Origin: a virus
Lineage: Duplodnaviria > Heunggongvirae > Uroviricota > Caudoviricetes
Reading direction: 5' to 3' (one strand)
DNA length: 8,918 bases
IMG/VR virus record: IMGVR_UViG_2534682329_000008
This document shows positions 337 through 8,918 of this stretch, piece after piece (the stretch's first letter is position 1; every line of letters begins with the position of its first letter). The translations under genes and the position numbers were made by a program. The notes under the pieces were generated by a model. That model worked only from the letters and a program-made list of their open reading frames with translations. It ran no database searches and was not told the DNA's origin.

Positions 337-351
337 GTTGGAGTCACTACC
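1..351 (+). mobile_element. IS1 insertion sequence, right-hand ~350 bp (left part lies outside the window)
   Basis: Frame from position 1 translates to the InsB C-terminal region (…RWLFYAYD…VFGERT…[69 protein letters not shown]). The sequence then ends in the characteristic IS1 terminus …AAGTTGGAGTCACTACC at ~340-351. Junction position is uncertain by 1-2 bp. Confidence 0.9.
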
Positions 352-829
352 GTTTTTTCTTCCATGATAATTTAACCCGACTTGACTTTATCTCGCTTTC
401 TTCATTTGCCCTTTGTGCTATAAGTATGGCTTTTATTAATGAATATGGCTCATTCAAAGAGTCAATATTATAGACTGTATTGTCGCAAAGAGTTATAACA
501 TCAATACCGTGATTCAAAATCAATTTCAGACGTTCAATCGCTTCACCGACTTTTTCTCTTGAAAGTCTGTCCAGACTTTCAACTAACAATGTAGTTCCTG
601 GCAATATATAACCATGCTCTATAGCATCTAAAAATTCCGAAAAAGCTCCTGATTGTGCATGCTTTCCTTTGAATGCACTTAATCCTAAATCTTCATATGT
701 TATGGTATCAAGATAATAATCACTATTTACCTTTAACCATTCAGCAATAAGTCTTCTCTGTCGGTTTAATGAGTCGCCAGACATCTGACCTGGTGATGAA
801 AATCGCATATATGCTATGGCTTTTTTCAT
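352..829 (-). pseudogene. ybcK: Large serine recombinase (YbcK-like, DLP12 prophage recombinase), 3'-truncated by the IS1 insertion; only the ~160-aa N-terminal resolvase-type catalytic domain remains
   Basis: Translation MKKAIAYMRFSSPGQMSGDSLNRQRR… is a typical serine-recombinase N-terminus (catalytic Ser in the RFSS motif). The frame runs straight into the IS1 terminus and stops at 347-349 inside IS1. From memory the intact K-12 homologue is ~500 aa. The region is AT-rich. Confidence 0.8.
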
Positions 830-1083: not shown

Positions 1084-1416
1084 TTAATGTGGTGTGCTTC
1101 GTGACAATAAATTAATAATCAACACACCGGCACAAATCAACATCATGCCTATAATGGCTGGCAGGTCCAGCCGTTGGCCGAAAAATCCCCATGACAGTAA
1201 GCTAATCAGGACAATACCGACTCCTGACCAGATAGCATAAGCAATCCCTGTAGGAATATAAGCCAGCGTCTGAGCTAATAACCAGAATGATGCACAATAA
1301 CAAATAATTGTACCAACAGATGGCCATAACCGTGTAAAACCTTCTGAAAACTTCATTAAGGTTGTACCAATGACCTCTGCAAGTATTGCACCACCAAGAT
1401 AAATATAAGGGTTCAT
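1084..1416 (-). CDS. emrE: Small multidrug resistance (SMR) efflux transporter EmrE, 110 aa
   Basis: Translation from the internal ATG (1416) is MNPYIYLGGAILAEVIGTTLMKFSEGF…LLSRSTPH, matching E. coli EmrE from memory, with four predicted TM helices and the conserved Glu14 (…AILAEVIG…). SD AGGAAA lies ~6 nt upstream. The ORF-track start at 1470 is an unsupported N-terminal extension. Confidence 0.95.
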   Translation of the reverse strand: MNPYIYLGGAILAEVIGTTLMKFSEGFTRLWPSVGTIICYCASFWLLAQTLAYIPTGIAYAIWSGVGIVLISLLSWGFFGQRLDLPAIIGMMLICAGVLIINLLSRSTPH

Positions 1417-1483
1417 AGCATATTCTTTCCTGTTCAAACTGGAGAGAATTGTACTACAGTTTGAACTCAACTCACCTGTTTCA

Positions 1484-2484: not shown

Positions 2485-3410
2485 AAATCCACCCCATAAA
2501 TCCAGTCAGTGTTTGTCAGGTCGAGTTTTGGTTTGCCGGATGTCACGCCAGCCTGTTGCTTGTTTCGGTTGATTTCGAGCTGGGTCCACTTGTCGCGGAG
2601 TTTGGCCGGACTCAGCACGTTACCGGACCAGAAGTTGTCCTGGCATGCCCAGCGGAACAGCACGCACATGTCGCGGTGGTTACGTCCGTCACGTTCACGC
2701 ATCAGGCGGATATCGTTAGCCCACCCTGCAAAATTCGGTTTTCTGGCTGATGGCGCGATGGTCTTCACCATGTCAAACATCCACTCTGCGGCGGTCAGGT
2801 CTTCTGCTGTCCCCCACTTGCTGCCACTCTGAATTGCAGCATCCGGTTTCACCACAGGAAGGTCGTTTTCTGGCTGGTCAGAGGATTCGCCAGAATTCTC
2901 GGACGAAAAAGGTTTTATATTGTCTTTTGTTAGTTTGTCTTTTGTGTTTACCTGATTCGGGTAAACGCCTTTACCTGATTTGGGTAAACTTTTCTTACCT
3001 GATTCAGGTAAATTTACCTCTTTCAGGTAAACTTTATTTTTCTTACCTGATTCGGGTAATGTTGACCATTCACTGACCACATTATTAATGCCGATATTTC
3101 GCCCGCTCTGAATAAGAATCCCACGCTTTACCAGAACGCTTTTTGCAGCAGAACACTTGTGCGGCAATATCCCGGTCAATTCGGAAAGTTGCTCGTTGCT
3201 CACCCAATCCAGTCTTTTATTAAAGCCATATGTTTTGCGCATGACAGCCAGGAAGACCAGAAGCTGGTGCTGTGTTAATCCGGCCAGCATCACAGCTTCC
3301 AGCAACTCATTTGCAATGCGCGTATAACCATCATCGAGATCTGCCACGCGCGGCTCCTTTTGTGCCGCATCCGGCACTGGAAAATTGAATATCTCAGCAG
3401 TGTTTGCCAT
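2481..3410 (-). CDS. O: Replication initiator protein O (hybrid: non-lambda N-terminal iteron-binding domain, lambda-type C-terminal P-interaction domain)
   Basis: C-terminal ~110 aa (…EDLTAAEWMFDMVKTIAPSARKPNFAGWANDIRLMRERDGRNHRDMCVLFRWACQDNFWSGNVLSPAKLRDKWTQLEINRNKQQAGV…LDLTNTDWIYGVDL) match lambda O from memory. The N-terminal domain is only lambda-like in outline (ADLDDGY…RKTYGFNK). Start chosen at ATG 3410, preceded by a strong SD GGGAGGAATT; the longer track ORF to 3500 is judged an artefact. Iterons lie inside the gene. Confidence 0.9.
   Translation of the reverse strand: MANTAEIFNFPVPDAAQKEPRVADLDDGYTRIANELLEAVMLAGLTQHQLLVFLAVMRKTYGFNKRLDWVSNEQLSELTGILPHKCSAAKSVLVKRGILIQSGRNIGINNVVSEWSTLPESGKKNKVYLKEVNLPESGKKSLPKSGKGVYPNQVNTKDKLTKDNIKPFSSENSGESSDQPENDLPVVKPDAAIQSGSKWGTAEDLTAAEWMFDMVKTIAPSARKPNFAGWANDIRLMRERDGRNHRDMCVLFRWACQDNFWSGNVLSPAKLRDKWTQLEINRNKQQAGVTSGKPKLDLTNTDWIYGVDL
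2921..3070 (-). repeat. Origin of replication (ori-lambda type): five ~18-bp iterons plus an adjacent AT-rich region, embedded in the O coding sequence
   Basis: Five copies of the dyad TTACCTGATTCGGGTAA and variants at ~2958-2976, 2981-2999, 3005-3022, 3024-3042 and 3053-3070. In the O direction they are followed by the AT-rich tract 2921-2957 (GGTTTTATATTGTCTTTTGTTAGTTTGTCTTTTGTG). They encode the repetitive peptide …LPESGKK…LPESGKKSLPKSGK…. Confidence 0.8.
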
Positions 3411-4300: not shown

Positions 4301-4404
4301 TTCCTATTGGTATTGCAATGAATAAATAATAGCAATACGTATTAATCCAAGCAATAGCAAAACGTGTTTTGACCATCAATACGCAAGCGTATAAATTAAA
4401 ACTT
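4301..4404. promoter_or_regulatory. OR-like divergent promoter/operator region: PR-like promoter (minus strand) for cro and PRM-like promoter (plus strand) giving a near-leaderless cI mRNA
   Basis: Minus strand: -35 TTGCTT (4349-4354), 17-bp spacer, -10 TATTAT (4326-4331). Plus strand: -35 TTGACC (4369-4374), 15-16 bp spacer, -10 TATAAA/ATAAAT (4390-4396), placing +1 within a few nt of the cI ATG at 4405, which has no SD. The 8-mer AATAGCAA occurs at 4328-4335 and 4353-4360, and ATTGCAAT at 4312-4319. Confidence 0.55.
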
Positions 4405-5097
4405 ATGAAAAAAGAAACTCTTGCTGATCGCTTAAACCTAGCGATGGAACAATCTGGAATGTCTCAAGGCGCTCTTGCAAAGGCGTCTGGCGTAGCTCAA
4501 CCCACAATCTGGAGACTGACAAGCGGCAACGCTCGCGGCTCAACAAAAATTGTTGAAATAGCTAATGCATTGGGTGTTCGAACAGAATGGCTCTCATCAG
4601 GCATAGGCCCGATGAGAAATGACGGTCAACAATCAGGGAAGCCTGCTGTCAGCCATTCAAAATACTTCAAGATTGACGTTCTTGATATAGAAGTGAGTGC
4701 CGGGCCGGGAGTCATCAACCGTGAGTTTGTAGAAGTTCTACGCTCGGTTGAGTACTCGTTTGACGATGCTCGTCACATGTTCGATGGTAGGAAGGCAGAA
4801 AATATCCGCATCATTAACGTACGCGGTGACAGCATGTCAGGAACGATCGAACCAGGTGATCTGCTGTTCGTTGATATCACGGTTAAATCTTTCGACGGTG
4901 ATGGTATCTATGCGTTTCTGTATGACGACACCGCCCATGTAAAGCGCCTGCAAATGATGAAGGATAAGCTACTGGTTATCTCTGATAACAAGAGCTACTC
5001 ACCGTGGGACCCGATCGAGAAAGACGAGATGAACCGGGTATTCATATTCGGTAAGGTTATTGGGAGCATGCCGCAGACGTACAGAAAACACGGATAA
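4405..5097 (+). CDS. cI: cI-like prophage repressor: N-terminal XRE-type HTH plus C-terminal LexA/S24 autopeptidase domain
   Basis: HTH …SQGALAKASGVAQPTIWRLTSG…; a candidate Ala-Gly cleavage site in the linker (EVSAGPG); S24 catalytic motifs …VRGDSMSGTIEPGDLLFVD… (Ser nucleophile) and …AHVKRL… (Lys). Start placed at ATG 4405 (MKKETLADRL…); the track start at 4369 is a TTG that coincides with the promoter -35. Confidence 0.85.
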   Translation: MKKETLADRLNLAMEQSGMSQGALAKASGVAQPTIWRLTSGNARGSTKIVEIANALGVRTEWLSSGIGPMRNDGQQSGKPAVSHSKYFKIDVLDIEVSAGPGVINREFVEVLRSVEYSFDDARHMFDGRKAENIRIINVRGDSMSGTIEPGDLLFVDITVKSFDGDGIYAFLYDDTAHVKRLQMMKDKLLVISDNKSYSPWDPIEKDEMNRVFIFGKVIGSMPQTYRKHG

Positions 5098-5179: not shown

Positions 5180-5443
5180 ATGAGTAATAAAACACTTGTT
5201 AAAAAATCAAATAACTGTGTCGATGCATACGCCGACGCGTTTGGCTACTCTTCGTTTGGTGACGGCTCTCAGCGCCTAGGTTCAATTTCTTTTTTTCATA
5301 ATGTAACTGAATGGCCTGTTGATGAAAGTGACGATGTTGAGAACATAAAGTACAACATTGCAACCATTAGAATGCCCGAAGAATTGATGCTTAAATTGGC
5401 TGACTTCATTCGCGACCAGCATGACAAAGCTAAAACAAACTAA
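5180..5443 (+). CDS. Hypothetical 87-aa protein, first gene of an immunity-region accessory cassette (moron)
   Basis: ATG with SD (GGGAAAGG) ~6 nt upstream. Markedly AT-rich relative to flanking phage genes. Co-oriented downstream of cI. No family recognised; the C-terminal segment …IATIRMPEELMLKLADFIRDQ… has a beta-strand/helix pattern faintly reminiscent of a ribbon-helix-helix, but is too short to call. Confidence 0.5.
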   Translation: MSNKTLVKKSNNCVDAYADAFGYSSFGDGSQRLGSISFFHNVTEWPVDESDDVENIKYNIATIRMPEELMLKLADFIRDQHDKAKTN

Positions 5444-5455
5444 TCGTAATTAATT

Positions 5456-5899
5456 ATGAAACACGATTATTACGAAGCTCCAAACCTAAATGATAAAATT
5501 GCAAAGGCGGCAAAATCATTTTGTTTGCACTCCAGTGCGTCTTCCCAGCTAGCAGGTATATCTGGAAAAAGATGGGACATGCTACAATCAAGTGGTAGCA
5601 GTGGGTCTGGGAGTGATAACATGCCTGAAAAAGTTGCAAAACTGGAGTCCGATGTTGCTCATATCAAACGAGACGTTGATGAACTTAAAACAGACGTTAA
5701 AGCTATCGACAAAAATATGATAACTATTCTTGCACGTCTGGACTCTATAAAAGAATCCTTAACAAACAAGCCATCAAGTGATGCTGTCGATAGAAAGATT
5801 TCAGACGCAAAGCTTGCGGTATTGCTTGGTGTTCCAGCAATCATCGCTGCAGGAACAGGACTTTATAAGCTATCAATGTACTTTTTCTTTAGTGCTTAA
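5456..5899 (+). CDS. Hypothetical coiled-coil protein with a C-terminal transmembrane anchor (XhlA-like architecture), 147 aa (or 92 aa if translated from the internal ATG at 5621)
   Basis: Heptad-like charged coiled-coil segment (KLESDVAHIKRDVDELKTDVKAIDKNMITILARLDSIKESL), then the hydrophobic stretch LAVLLGVPAIIAAGTGLYKL near the C-terminus. The first ATG at 5456 has no SD, whereas the internal in-frame ATG at 5621 is preceded by GGAG at 5609-5612. AT-rich. Confidence 0.55.
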   Translation: MKHDYYEAPNLNDKIAKAAKSFCLHSSASSQLAGISGKRWDMLQSSGSSGSGSDNMPEKVAKLESDVAHIKRDVDELKTDVKAIDKNMITILARLDSIKESLTNKPSSDAVDRKISDAKLAVLLGVPAIIAAGTGLYKLSMYFFFSA

Positions 5900-5974
5900 G
5901 AAAATGCTCGCACCCTTGCATTAGGTAAAGCGATTTTTCATTCCCCATTACCCTCGCTCTTAACCAATCATCTA

Positions 5975-6003
5975 AACCCGGCCACCGTGCCGGGTTTTCT
6001 TTT
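5975..6003 (+). terminator. Rho-independent terminator ending the cI-orf87-orf147 operon (t_imm analogue)
   Basis: Stem CCCGGC (5977-5982) / GCCGGG (5989-5994), 6-nt loop, followed by TTTTCTTTT (5995-6003). Confidence 0.75.
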
Positions 6004-6089
6004 GCCCTCCCCTCATCACACACCGTTCAAAAAACCACCACGACCTCACTTCAGTTATCGCTATGCGATGCAAGTCACAAAATTAATTC

Positions 6090-6178
6090 TTTTTGCTATC
6101 AAACATTTAATATCAAAACACATCAACTAATAGCAACAAGTATTGATATCACCAATAGCAATAGCTATTATCACCATA
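6090..6178 (+). promoter_or_regulatory. OL/PL-like operator-promoter driving the rightward (plus-strand) early operon towards gam-bet-exo
   Basis: -35 TTGATA (6143-6148), 17-bp spacer, -10 TATTAT (6166-6171). The same AATAGCAA 8-mer as in the OR region occurs at 6129-6136 and 6154-6161, the latter inside the spacer, with a 7/8 inverted copy TTGCTATC at 6093-6100. Confidence 0.55.
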
Positions 6179-6364
6179 TCGCAACAACACAACGATACGG
6201 CAACCACCTGATTCACCGTTGCGATGACCGTTTAGATCCGCAGCTTGAATTTCAGCAGGCTTCGGGGAGTGCGAGGGGTGAAACGGACGCGTGAACGTCG
6301 GTGTGACCAGCTGAAATTAACTCAACATTTCATACCTCAGTCGCTTCAACGAGGCGGCTTAGTT

Positions 6365-6655
6365 ATGACAACCGGCGGCCATCCACCGCCTGAATATGCG
6401 CAGAAGTCTCTATATGTTCAGCAGCCCAGCTTACGGGCAGGAGTTTTTATGGTTCATCAACATTACGGAACGCAGACCGTTAATCGCGGTGCGGTCATGC
6501 CAGGCATGCTGGTCAAACACAAAGATGGTACCTGGACTGCATCAGCTAATTTACGCGGACGGCTTTATCTGCATCGCGGCATCGAGCGCACTTATACCCG
6601 TGATTTGCTCGTGGAAGTTTTTCTCGACGGACGCGGTAACGGCCTCAATCACTAA
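6365..6655 (+). CDS. Hypothetical 96-aa protein between PL and gam (kil/cIII position)
   Basis: ATG 6365 with SD GAGG ~10 nt upstream; stop TAA 6653-6655. No similarity to lambda N, cIII or Kil that I can recognise. The track ORF from a TTG at 6245 is a longer alternative with no SD. Confidence 0.4.
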
Positions 6656-6730
6656 TCCCCTTTCCTGTTTTCCTAATCAGCCTGGCATTTCGCGGGCGAT
6701 ATTTTCACAGCCATTTTCAGGAGTTCAGCC

Positions 6731-7027
6731 ATGAACGCTTATTACATTCAGGATCGTCTTGAGGCTCAGAGCTGGGCGCGTCACTACCAGCAGATCGCCC
6801 GTGAAGAGAAAGAGGCAGAACTGGCAGACGACATGGAAAAAGGCCTGCCCCAGCACCTGTTTGAATCGCTATGCATCGATCATTTGCAACGCCACGGGGC
6901 CAGCAAAAAAGCCATTACCCGTGCATTTGATGACGATGTTGAGTTTCAGGAGCGCATGGCGGAACACATCCGGTACATGGTTGAAACCATTGCTCACCAT
7001 CAGGTTGATATTGATTCAGAGGTATAA
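6731..7027 (+). CDS. gam: Gam, host RecBCD nuclease inhibitor (short 98-aa form)
   Basis: [60 protein letters not shown]…[10 protein letters not shown] is near-identical to the lambda Gam C-terminal 98 aa from memory. SD GGAG ~8 nt upstream. Confidence 0.9.
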
Positions 7028-7032
7028 AACAA

Positions 7033-7818
7033 ATGAGTACTGCACTCGCAACGCTGGCAGGGAAGCTGGCTGAACGTGTCGGCATGGATTCTGTCGACCC
7101 ACAGGAACTGATCACCACTCTTCGCCAGACGGCATTTAAAGGTGATGCCAGCGATGCGCAGTTCATCGCATTGTTGATCGTCGCCAACCAGTACGGCCTT
7201 AATCCGTGGACGAAAGAAATTTACGCCTTCCCTGATAAGCAGAACGGCATCGTTCCGGTGGTGGGCGTTGATGGCTGGTCCCGCATCATCAATGAAAACC
7301 AGCAGTTTGATGGTATGGACTTTGAGCAGGACAATGAATCCTGCACATGCCGGATTTACCGCAAGGACCGTAATCATCAGATCTGCGTTACCGAGTGGAT
7401 GGATGAATGCCGCCGCGAACCATTCAAAACCCGCGAAGGCAGAGAAATCACGGGGCCGTGGCAGTCGCATCCCAAACGGATGTTACGTCATAAAGCCATG
7501 ATTCAGTGTGCCCGTCTGGCCTTCGGATTTGCTGGTATCTATGACAAGGATGAAGCCGAGCGCATTGTCGAAAATACCGCATACACTGCAGAACGTCAGC
7601 CGGAACGCGACATCACTCCGGTTAACGATGAAACCATGCAGGAGATTAACACTCTGCTGATCGCCCTGGATAAAACATGGGATGACGACTTATTGCCGCT
7701 CTGTTCCCAGATATTTCGCCGCAACATTCGTGCATCGTCAGAACTGACACAGGCCGAAGCAGTAAAAGCTCTTGGATTCCTGAAACAGAAAGCCGCAGAG
7801 CAGAAGGTGGCAGCATGA
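7033..7818 (+). CDS. bet: Bet (Red-beta) single-strand annealing recombinase, 261 aa
   Basis: [66 protein letters not shown]… is near-identical to lambda Bet from memory, with the same length. ATGA overlap with exo. Confidence 0.97.
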
Positions 7819-8495
7819 CACCGGACATTATCCTGCAGCGTACCGGGATCGACGTGAGAGCTGTCGAACAGGGGGATGATGCGTGGCACAAATTACGGCT
7901 CGGCGTCATCACCGCTTCAGAAGTTCACAACGTGATAGCAAAGCCCCGCTCAGGAAAGAAGTGGCCTGACATGAAAATGTCCTACTTCCACACCCTGCTG
8001 GCTGAGGTTTGCACCGGTGTGGCTCCGGAAGTTAATGCTAAGGCGCTGGCCTGGGGAAAACAGTACGAGAACGACGCCAGAGCCCTGTTTGAGTTTACTT
8101 CCGGCGTGAATGTTACTGAATCCCCGATCATCTATCGCGACGAAAGTATGCGCACCGCCTGCTCTCCCGATGGTTTATGCAGTGACGGCAACGGCCTTGA
8201 ACTGAAATGCCCGTTTACCTCCCGGGATTTCATGAAATTCCGGCTCGGTGGTTTCGAGGCAATAAAATCGGCTTACATGGCCCAGGTGCAGTACAGCATG
8301 TGGGTGACGCGAAAAGATGCCTGGTACTTTGCCAACTATGACCCGCGTATGAAGCGTGAAGGACTGCATTATGTCGTGGTTGAGCGGGATGAAAAGTACA
8401 TGGCGAGTTTTAACGAGATGGTGCCGGAGTTCATCGAAAAAATGGACGAGGCACTGGCTGAAATTGGTTTTGTATTTGGGGAGCAATGGCGATGA
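7815..8495 (+). CDS. exo: Exo (Red-alpha) 5'-3' dsDNA exonuclease, 226 aa
   Basis: [65 protein letters not shown]… is near-identical to lambda Exo from memory, with the same length. Confidence 0.97.
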
Positions 8496-8674
8496 CGCAT
8501 CCTCACGATAATATCCGGGTAGGCGCGATCACTTTCGTCTACTCCGTTACAAAGCGAGGCTGGGTATTTCCCGGCCTTTCTGTTATCAGAAATCCACTGA
8601 AAGCACAGCGGCTGGCTGAGAAGATAAATAATAAACGGGAGGCGGTATGCACAAAGCATCTCCTGTTGAGTTAA
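8486..8674 (+). CDS. Small early-left ORF (lambda orf61-like hypothetical protein)
   Basis: 62-aa ORF whose start overlaps the exo stop, with SD GGGGAG upstream. Recalled as conserved in lambda immediately distal to exo; function unknown. Confidence 0.55.
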
Positions 8675-8838
8675 GAACGAGTATTGAGATGGCACATAGC
8701 CTTGCTCAAATTGGAGTCAGGTTTGTGCCAATACCAGTAGAAACAGACGAAGAATTTCATACGTTAGCCGCATCCCTTTCACAAAAGCTGGAAATGATGG
8801 TGGCGAAAGCAGAAGCAGATGAGAGAGACCAGGTATGA
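8647..8838 (+). CDS. Small early-left ORF (lambda orf63-like hypothetical protein)
   Basis: 63-aa ORF with a strong SD GGGAGG ~7 nt upstream of ATG 8647. Overlaps the preceding ORF by 28 nt in a different frame. Confidence 0.55.
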   Translation: MHKASPVELRTSIEMAHSLAQIGVRFVPIPVETDEEFHTLAASLSQKLEMMVAKAEADERDQV

Positions 8839-8918
8839 CAACCACTGAATGCATTTTTCTGGCAGCGGGCTTCATATTCTGTGTGCTTATGCTTGCCGAC
8901 ATGGGGCTTGTTCAGTGA
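8835..8918 (+). CDS. Possible 27-aa hydrophobic micro-ORF, translationally coupled to the previous gene
   Basis: ATGA overlap with the stop of the previous ORF. Translation is MTTTECIFLAAGFIFCVLMLADMGLVQ (single TM-like segment); stop TGA is the last three bases of the window. No other support. Confidence 0.25.
   Translation: MTTTECIFLAAGFIFCVLMLADMGLVQ

Follow-up and report, generated by a model that had tools for sequence, protein, structure and literature searches.

Early-Left Operons of Lambdoid Phages with and without N

The early-left operons of lambdoid phages are known in several arrangements. In lambda, N, nutL, tL1, ral, sieB, ea10, and cIII belong to the arm that leads from PL to gam; in phi80, nutL, N, and the terminators tL1A and tL1B are annotated between PL and kil; and the phages HK022 and HK639, which carry put RNAs, lack an N gene. 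Where a lambdoid phage lacks N, the usual assumption is that a put-like RNA is at work (e.g., Genome Res 2025, PMC12315714). The 8918-nucleotide (nt) stretch of DNA analysed here (hereafter, the window), from the IMG/VR record IMGVR_UViG_2534682329_000008 (Caudoviricetes), holds the early-left operon PL-kil-gam-bet-exo of a DLP12-like lambdoid prophage. N-less lambdoid phages such as HK022 and HK639 are already known; this lineage is a variant that can be shown to lack put as well as N, and its gene content (Kil, Gam, Bet, and Exo) is ordinary. The operon probably never contained N at this position, and the expression of kil-gam-bet-exo is likely to be N-independent by architecture.

From an RNA module upstream of kil (the pre-kil module) onward, the gene order is that of phi80 (kil...gam-rec-exo in phi80), which also has a homologous Kil, the same module, and a right operon starting with YdaS/YdaT-like genes. 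However, the stretch between PL and the module, which in phi80 comprises nutL, N, and tL1 terminators, has been replaced in the window by a 150-nt leader that is unrelated to it and includes no terminator. HK639, CobraSix, and S9-5 have the pre-kil module and the Kil family in common with the window, but in HK639 the module is preceded by putL, two open reading frames (ORFs), and a terminator, and the put RNA of HK022 and HK639 has no detectable counterpart in the window. With respect to lambda, the position relative to OL/PL is the same and the gam-bet-exo-orf60a block is lambda's, including the terminator-like hairpin past exo, whereas the genes and sites from N to cIII listed above are all missing, and the 47-amino-acid (aa) lambda Kil belongs to another family than that of the window, yet uses the same stop codon. 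Rac KilR, in turn, gives a full-length hidden Markov model match and has a similar size, FtsZ inhibition being a predicted function of the window protein; KilR, too, is encoded in the early-left operon of a lambdoid element that lacks N. Finally, the order ren-emrE-ybcK is common to DLP12 and the Bievrevirus phages, among which Perceval holds the full nin-Q-nmpC-lysis set; the window differs from these relatives by an IS1 inserted in its ybcK homologue, and the DLP12 prophage of K-12 has lost its PL-kil-gam region.

The features of the operon, in coordinates of the window, are the following.

6128-6145 and 6153-6170, not stranded: OL operators, two 18-base-pair (bp) imperfect palindromes overlapping the -35 and -10 elements of PL
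6143-6171, plus strand: PL promoter TTGATA-17-TATTAT, sigma-70 type, 10/12 consensus match
6178-6327, plus strand: lineage-specific 5' leader, filling the slot of putL or nutL-N-tL1 in sister lineages
6283-6302, plus strand: CG-rich hairpin ACGGACG-CGUGAA-CGUCGGU, read from the sequence and seen in the local fold
6331-6367, plus strand: hairpin 1 of the pre-kil module, loop UUCAACGAG, with a covarying upper stem; fold -16.3 kcal/mol, z -4.6
6365-6448, plus strand: upstream mini-ORF MTTGGHPPP..., running in frame into kil here and thereby giving a 96-aa ORF
6374-6390, plus strand: hairpin 2, GGCGG-CCAUCCA-CCGCC, invariant in eight diverged phages; diversity 0.0017
6424-6443, plus strand: small hairpin GCCC-AGCUUAC-GGGC adjoining the Shine-Dalgarno (SD) sequence of kil, with two compensatory pairs
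6449-6655, plus strand: kil, a 68-aa homologue of the KilR/phi80-type FtsZ inhibitors, with SD AGGAG (6439-6443) 5 nt before the ATG
6646-8918, plus strand: lambda-derived block with the last 10 nt of kil, the gamL upstream region, gam, bet, exo, orf60a, and orf63
6731-7027, plus strand: gam, 98-aa short form (Pfam Gam PF06064, E 3e-65)
8556-8578, plus strand: strongest terminator-like hairpin on the PL transcript in the window, about 60 nt past exo; 9-bp stem, 6 GC pairs, z -4.4

An Operon without N, nut, put, or tL1

The original prediction placed PL about 550 bp upstream of gam, and both the promoter and the gam start are borne out, with a distance from PL to gam of approximately 550–560 bp. 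PL is the sole promoter-like site within 5850-6800, and it is considered repressor-controlled because 6125-6177 and the OR region in the cro-cI intergenic stretch (4324-4376) share 74% identity. Transcription would start near 6178, and relatives with other immunity regions join the common leader at 6178/6179. On the gam side, the lambda-derived block is 97.5% identical to lambda 33196-30925 and yields Pfam matches to Gam, DUF1317, and DUF1382; only the 98-aa Gam can be produced, because the upstream frame corresponding to lambda gamL holds a stop codon (TAA 6678-6680).

No N or Nun homologue was found in any frame of 6178-6740 with Pfam, PHROGs, and NCBIfam, and tblastn of the Arg-rich stretch was equally negative, in agreement with the earlier statement that N fits nowhere between PL and gam. 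A nutL boxB hairpin accompanied by an N gene was also looked for in this interval and not found, and the suggested scan for put-like RNAs and boxA/boxB elements was negative for both. Specifically, the PL leader contains no boxA within one to three mismatches (depending on the pattern length), and 6172-6460 contains no hairpin with a GNRNA loop. In the right operon, where 24 nt separate cro from the next gene, neither boxA nor boxB was detected downstream of cro, and boxA-like matches with two to three mismatches occur only far inside the PR-operon genes, at chance level. Neither the window nor the early regions annotated in complete relatives lend support to the idea of an N gene located elsewhere.

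The search for put used a covariance model of 18 pairs, with a covarying stem II, built from eight RNAs (putL and putR from HK022, and those from HK639, CobraSix, S9-5, phiEt88, UPF_BP1, and PdC23), the core sought consisting of two stems with GAACG...GUCGG...GGCGGG..CAGGA..CAAU. This model picks up all known put RNAs; as controls, it recovered HK639 putL at 94 bits and put RNAs at 58–98 bits in 20 out of 100 IMG/VR loci. With the filters off, its best score in the window was 9.2 bits (E 0.6), inside cI, and nothing scored above 9 bits in 4A7, Perceval, PhiR68_2, or the IMG/VR loci of the window type. When all of the window was compared with Rfam by cmscan (E ≤ 1), the leader gave no match, and the three matches in other parts are attributable to chance. 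A comparison with the mEp021 Gp17/nut system showed it to be unrelated.

According to the proposed model, once the repressor leaves OL, the PL transcript would begin with an untranslated leader of approximately 270 nt (6178-6448), formed by the lineage-specific part (6178-6327) and the pre-kil module (6328-6448), and would then pass directly into kil and the lambda-derived gam-bet-exo. In sister lineages, N and nutL, or putL, are followed by an intrinsic tL1 and then by the module, while in the window lineage PL and its specific 150-nt leader are joined straight to the module and no terminator intervenes. The expression of Kil, Gam, Bet, and Exo should need no antiterminator, since a tL1-type terminator between PL and their genes is missing, and only weak terminator-like sites occur within 6178-8495. 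Among the options that the original prediction had left, an N-independent mode of antitermination fits best, given that neither N, nut, put, nor a tL1-type terminator precedes kil-gam-bet-exo.

Several observations weigh against this model. The PL transcript meets the strong terminator-like hairpin at 8556-8578, which aligns with lambda 31286-31264, probably tL3. A second terminator candidate precedes xis-int in 4A7 (L001 8176-8190), and on the path from PR to Q in Perceval, good candidates follow emrE and ybcK (L030 1028-1053 and 3102-3123). Due to these downstream candidates, a phage without any processive antitermination is not fully explained. Furthermore, the diversity of 6212-6327, around half of the neutral level, hints at a function, and in one IMG/VR locus (L124) a put RNA abuts the module without a terminator, so that a missing tL1 does not prove the dispensability of an antiterminator. 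Few E. coli prophages are as common as those of this lineage, which includes inducible plaque-formers, yet it has terminator-like hairpins on both early operons; hence, either internal promoters and leaky termination suffice and early antitermination is dispensable in a lambda-like cascade, or an antitermination mechanism not yet recognised exists. A promoter-like site in Perceval (L030 4437-4465) precedes ninB.

The kil Gene and Its Start

The original prediction described a plausible ORF at 6365-6655 with no recognisable similarity to N, cIII, or Kil. This statement stands for N, but it is refuted for Kil. Residues 20–96 of the 96-aa ORF match phrog_294 ("Kil protein for bacterial septation inhibition") with an E of 1e-38, spanning profile positions 4–80 out of 83, and the C-terminal 68 aa match NCBIfam NF008465, which comprises the FtsZ inhibitors of the Rac KilR type (E 2e-17, 1–68 versus 1–70 out of 73). 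As its score of 63 bits falls under the curated cut-off of 92 bits, the window Kil represents a related subfamily and not an equivalog of NF008465. The 68-aa product is 41% identical to phi80 Kil, and H5, Y6, G7, T8, R13, P18, and G19, among other residues, are invariant in an alignment of 12 Kil sequences. Judging by the full-length profile match and the early-left position, the gene belongs to the KilR/phi80-type Kil family; the same placement, upstream of gam or recombination genes, is found in phi80, HK639, HK225, CobraSix, KO-TP1, and S9-5. Only for lambda's own 47-aa Kil does the lack of similarity hold, BLASTP giving no alignment at E ≤ 100 and the two genes sharing no more than their final 10 nt, with the stop codon among them. 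The recombination junction thus lies 10 nt 5' of a stop codon shared by two unrelated kil genes, one of the KilR type and the other the 47-aa lambda type.

The bounds of the ORF also need correction. In homologues from Citrobacter, Kluyvera, Enterobacter, Silvania, and Pseudocitrobacter, 79–87% identical, the similarity starts exactly at ATG 6449 and the upstream sequence is unrelated; this start is the one served by the SD, and the 68-aa product corresponds to RefSeq WP_000233576 ("phage encoded cell division inhibitor protein"). Within 6449-6655, 10 synonymous changes are found versus 2 nonsynonymous ones, with a diversity of 0.0006 at codon positions 1 and 2 and of 0.050 at position 3. On these comparisons, ATG 6449 is the start of kil, and neither the 96-aa ORF nor the 136-aa ORF starting at TTG is conserved. 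Several phage records consequently contain "Kil" ORFs (96 and 136 aa) that are too long, the conserved gene encoding 68 aa. Over-extended or wrong-frame coding sequences of 93–139 aa, labelled as Kil or hypothetical, are present in OV696612 (Perceval), PV340555, PV340558, PP925829, and PP925837.

A Conserved RNA Module Upstream of kil

The module at 6328-6448 is conserved in phi80, HK639, HK225, CobraSix, S9-5, KO-TP1, and ENT1, and its copies include L005 3205-3330, L007 3492-3620, L006 4000-4138, and 120 IMG/VR loci (L113-L232). Hairpin 1 is strongly supported by covariation: across eight phages, 7 of its 15 pairs show compensatory changes and the pairing amounts to 97.5%, compared with 32–40% when the partners are slid, and in 44 unique IMG/VR variants obtained by pattern scan, up to six pair types per column are observed, with 93–100% paired. 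Its loop (consensus UUYNNNGAG) and flanks are conserved, and at its base CAUA pairs with UAUG, burying AUG 6365-6367, the start of the mini-ORF. The mini-ORF ends after approximately 20–25 codons in other phages, and in phage Turner a 1-nt deletion breaks its fusion to kil. The spacing between this AUG and hairpin 2 differs by 0, -1, -2, or -3 nt among phages, which indicates that the MTTGGHPPP peptide is not conserved and that the constraint acts on the RNA. Hairpin 2 and its following T-run were labelled as a terminator by the depositors of HK639, whereas the window copy lacks the T-run.

Among the 120 IMG/VR loci, a tL1-type GC hairpin with a T-run lies directly upstream of the module in 80, the window-type leader in 34, and something else in the remaining 6; a Kil homologue is encoded 59–936 nt downstream in 92 of them. 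The window itself has no tL1-type terminator directly upstream of the module. In L124 (IMGVR_UViG_2568526609_000001, 6152-6300), a put RNA scoring 98 bits is placed as the window leader is: hairpin 1 begins about 6 nt after its end, and no terminator intervenes.

No Rfam family exists for this covarying module, which appears to be undescribed; the sole annotation concerns hairpin 2, as a putative terminator in HK639. In phages of the phi80, HK639, and DLP12 types, the left delayed-early operon opens with a widespread structured RNA that has strong covariation support and is missing from Rfam. Most likely, the module tunes the translation and/or the fate of the transcript of the toxic first delayed-early gene, and it might constitute a new class of regulatory RNA controlling this gene, regardless of the role of the leader that precedes it.

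Distribution of the Arrangement

The block 5975-6760 is 92–98% identical in 16 sequenced phages, all of them with PL-kil-gam and without N, reaching 96–98% in the Bievrevirus phages 4A7, 4C10, and Perceval. 4A7 and 4C10 are inducible and plaque-forming (bioRxiv 10.64898/2026.05.26.727859). For plaque-forming phages, the identity over PL, leader, kil, and gam is 92–99%. A match to the leader by itself occurs in 2210 (~40%) of the 5426 complete E. coli genomes, mostly at 95–99% identity and never annotated. At least three operator/immunity regions, unrelated to one another, are found joined to it, with junctions at 6178/6179 (the putative +1) or at 6212. Homology to lambda begins only at 6646, the 470 bp upstream having no lambda counterpart, which implies that the 2.4-kb segment from N to kil in lambda has been replaced rather than deleted.

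Other Enterobacteriaceae prophages also lead from PL straight into kil without N. Five of them (L016 and L019-L022, from Citrobacter and Kluyvera) have a different leader with an inverted repeat of approximately 18 bp (GTGAGCTTCGCGGTGGTG...CACCACCAGCGAAGTTCAC), around 190 nt upstream of kil, while the leaders of two others (L017 and L018) span only about 75 nt.

The Lineage-Specific Leader

No relatives of 6178-6327 were found outside the E. coli lineage by distant blastn against phages, the Kil relatives (one genome per species), and IMG/VR. Its diversity is 0.045 in 6178-6211, near neutral, and 0.025 in 6212-6327, about half of the neutral value of ~0.05 obtained from third codon positions nearby. 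The leader folds no better than shuffled sequences (minimum free energy z from -0.01 to +0.28), the structures predicted with alifold are unstable and shift with the boundaries chosen, and all copies are at least 92% identical, too alike for covariation to validate a structure. An apparent covariation between 6262 and 6283 is explained by linkage, as the neighbouring positions do not pair. A paired element for the right operon, in the manner of nutL/nutR or putL/putR, was not found: neither arm contains a second copy of the leader, only chance 9–11-mers. The leader also contains, at 6206-6215 (ACCTGATTCA), a 10-nt match to the iteron-like palindromes TTACCTGATTCAGGTAA located in O (2950-3053), at chance level (E ~3).

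Alternative Explanations

The last option of the original prediction, that this arm carries a deletion, would make the prophage a decayed lambda derivative that lost N, ral, and cIII. The IS1 in the ybcK-like recombinase and the high identity of gam-bet-exo to lambda could be taken as signs of such decay, but it is almost certainly wrong for this prophage: a private deletion is rejected by the presence of the same junctions in plaque-forming phages and thousands of genomes, the DNA between PL and 6646 is unrelated to lambda, and the genes for immunity and replication differ from those of lambda as well. Hardly more credible is a short N-like protein, translated from GTG 6278 or TTG 6245, alone or fused to Kil, and acting as the antiterminator. 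This frame encodes the Arg-rich stretch RLRGVRGVKRTRERR at 6257-6301, including KRTRERR, which resembles TRRRERR of lambda N; a GGGGAG sequence lies 8 nt upstream of GTG 6278, one relative has an ATG at that spot, and some depositors have annotated the long ORF (420 bp in Perceval). However, a stop codon replaces CAG at 6338 (CAG>TAG) in about 30% of the variants, four variants are shifted in frame by an insertion of 5 nt near 6314, and the motif itself is affected by an R>W change. The changes amount to 5 synonymous and 6 nonsynonymous ones, segregating sites are as frequent at position 3 as at positions 1 and 2, and the amino-acid identity among relatives (87–97%) is below the nucleotide identity. 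In addition, KRTRERR derives from the CGN codons that the CG-rich palindrome at 6283-6302 gives in the 6245 frame, no boxB-like target or family match was found, and tblastn of the Arg-rich stretch retrieved only the same locus in relatives. On the basis of the substitution pattern, the nonsense and frameshift variants, and the palindrome-encoded Arg codons, this frame is not regarded as a protein-coding feature; both an N remnant and an arginine-rich-motif protein are rejected, and the doubt already expressed about this extension, described as only superficially N-like, was justified.

Two further possibilities, each of them doubtful, concern the RNA. Due to its position and moderate constraint, the leader is the obvious candidate for an unrecognised mechanism of antitermination, in which 6178-6327 would act in cis in a put-like manner, although unrelated to put in sequence, modifying the RNA polymerase as the PL transcript begins and thereby allowing it to pass hairpins 1 and 2, the tL3-like hairpin, and later terminators. 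If so, this previously unrecognised antiterminator RNA would provide readthrough from PL without any phage protein in the very common DLP12-like prophages. It would fit with this role that the leader directly follows PL, in the slot of putL in L124 and of nutL-N in phi80; that it moves as a unit among immunity regions, with a junction at +1; that the diversity of 6212-6327 is halved; and that terminators are present downstream on the PL path. The hairpin at 6283-6302 (GAA(A)CGG...CGUCGG) also resembles the invariant GAACG...GUCGG of put stem I, which can be taken only as a lead. On the other hand, nothing in the leader reaches E ≤ 10 with the put model, even with the filters off, and the shuffle-like folding, the boundary-dependent structures, the merely moderate constraint, and the right operon without a second copy all argue against it, the variation being too low for a covariation test; thus, neither the fold z-scores, alifold, nor the put model gave positive structural evidence for an antiterminator role. 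The second possibility, which is comparably tentative, is that hairpin 1 and/or hairpin 2 (6331-6390) serve as an intrinsic or Rho-dependent attenuator of kil-gam-bet-exo, with the translation of the mini-ORF setting the readthrough. The strong conservation of the hairpin structure, the terminator annotated in HK639, the annotated rho-dependent tL1B about 100 nt downstream of the phi80 copy of the module, the burial of the mini-ORF AUG in hairpin 1, and the C-rich stretch CCAUCCACCGCC are consistent with it. Nevertheless, no T-run follows either hairpin in the window, a simple terminator would not be expected to conserve its loop and flanks, the peptide shows no conservation, and nothing points directly to Rho dependence. 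N-independent expression through an architecture free of tL1 is the preferred explanation.

The Prophage Context

The window represents a lambdoid prophage in reversed orientation with respect to the lambda map. Outside of the early-left operon, it holds the following features.

43-336: IS1 transposase fragment, adjoining the truncated serine recombinase
347-829, minus strand: serine recombinase (ybcK-like), cut down to its N-terminal resolvase domain
1084-1470, minus strand: EmrE-type transporter
Following these, all on the minus strand: ren, P, O, a YdaT-like "cII", and a YdaS-like cro
4369-5097, plus strand: cI
5974-5997, plus strand: intrinsic terminator closing the cI-moron (PRM) transcript, just 5' of OL/PL

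The ren-emrE-ybcK order coincides with that of the complete Bievrevirus phages 4A7, Lambda_4C10, and Perceval, whose right arms continue with ninB-ninE-ybcO-rusA-Q-nmpC-S, a gene set that identifies them as intact DLP12-like phages. Based on its near-identical early region and its DLP12-type synteny, the window prophage is a DLP12-like lambdoid of the Bievrevirus type. This copy is damaged in its right arm by the IS1 inside the ybcK homologue, which in Perceval is 1527 bp long.

The terminator at 5974-5997 has a 9-bp stem with 6 GC pairs and a T-run (fold -15.1 kcal/mol, z -4.2), and the block common to the window and its phage relatives starts around 5975. Between cI and this terminator, in the position of rexAB, two moron ORFs (5180-5899) encode proteins of 87 aa (phrog_4231) and 147 aa (phrog_3556), the latter with a coiled coil and a hydrophobic C-terminal segment. 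In relatives, the same slot holds other cargo, such as an ASCH-domain protein, a SIR2-family protein, or a lipoprotein.

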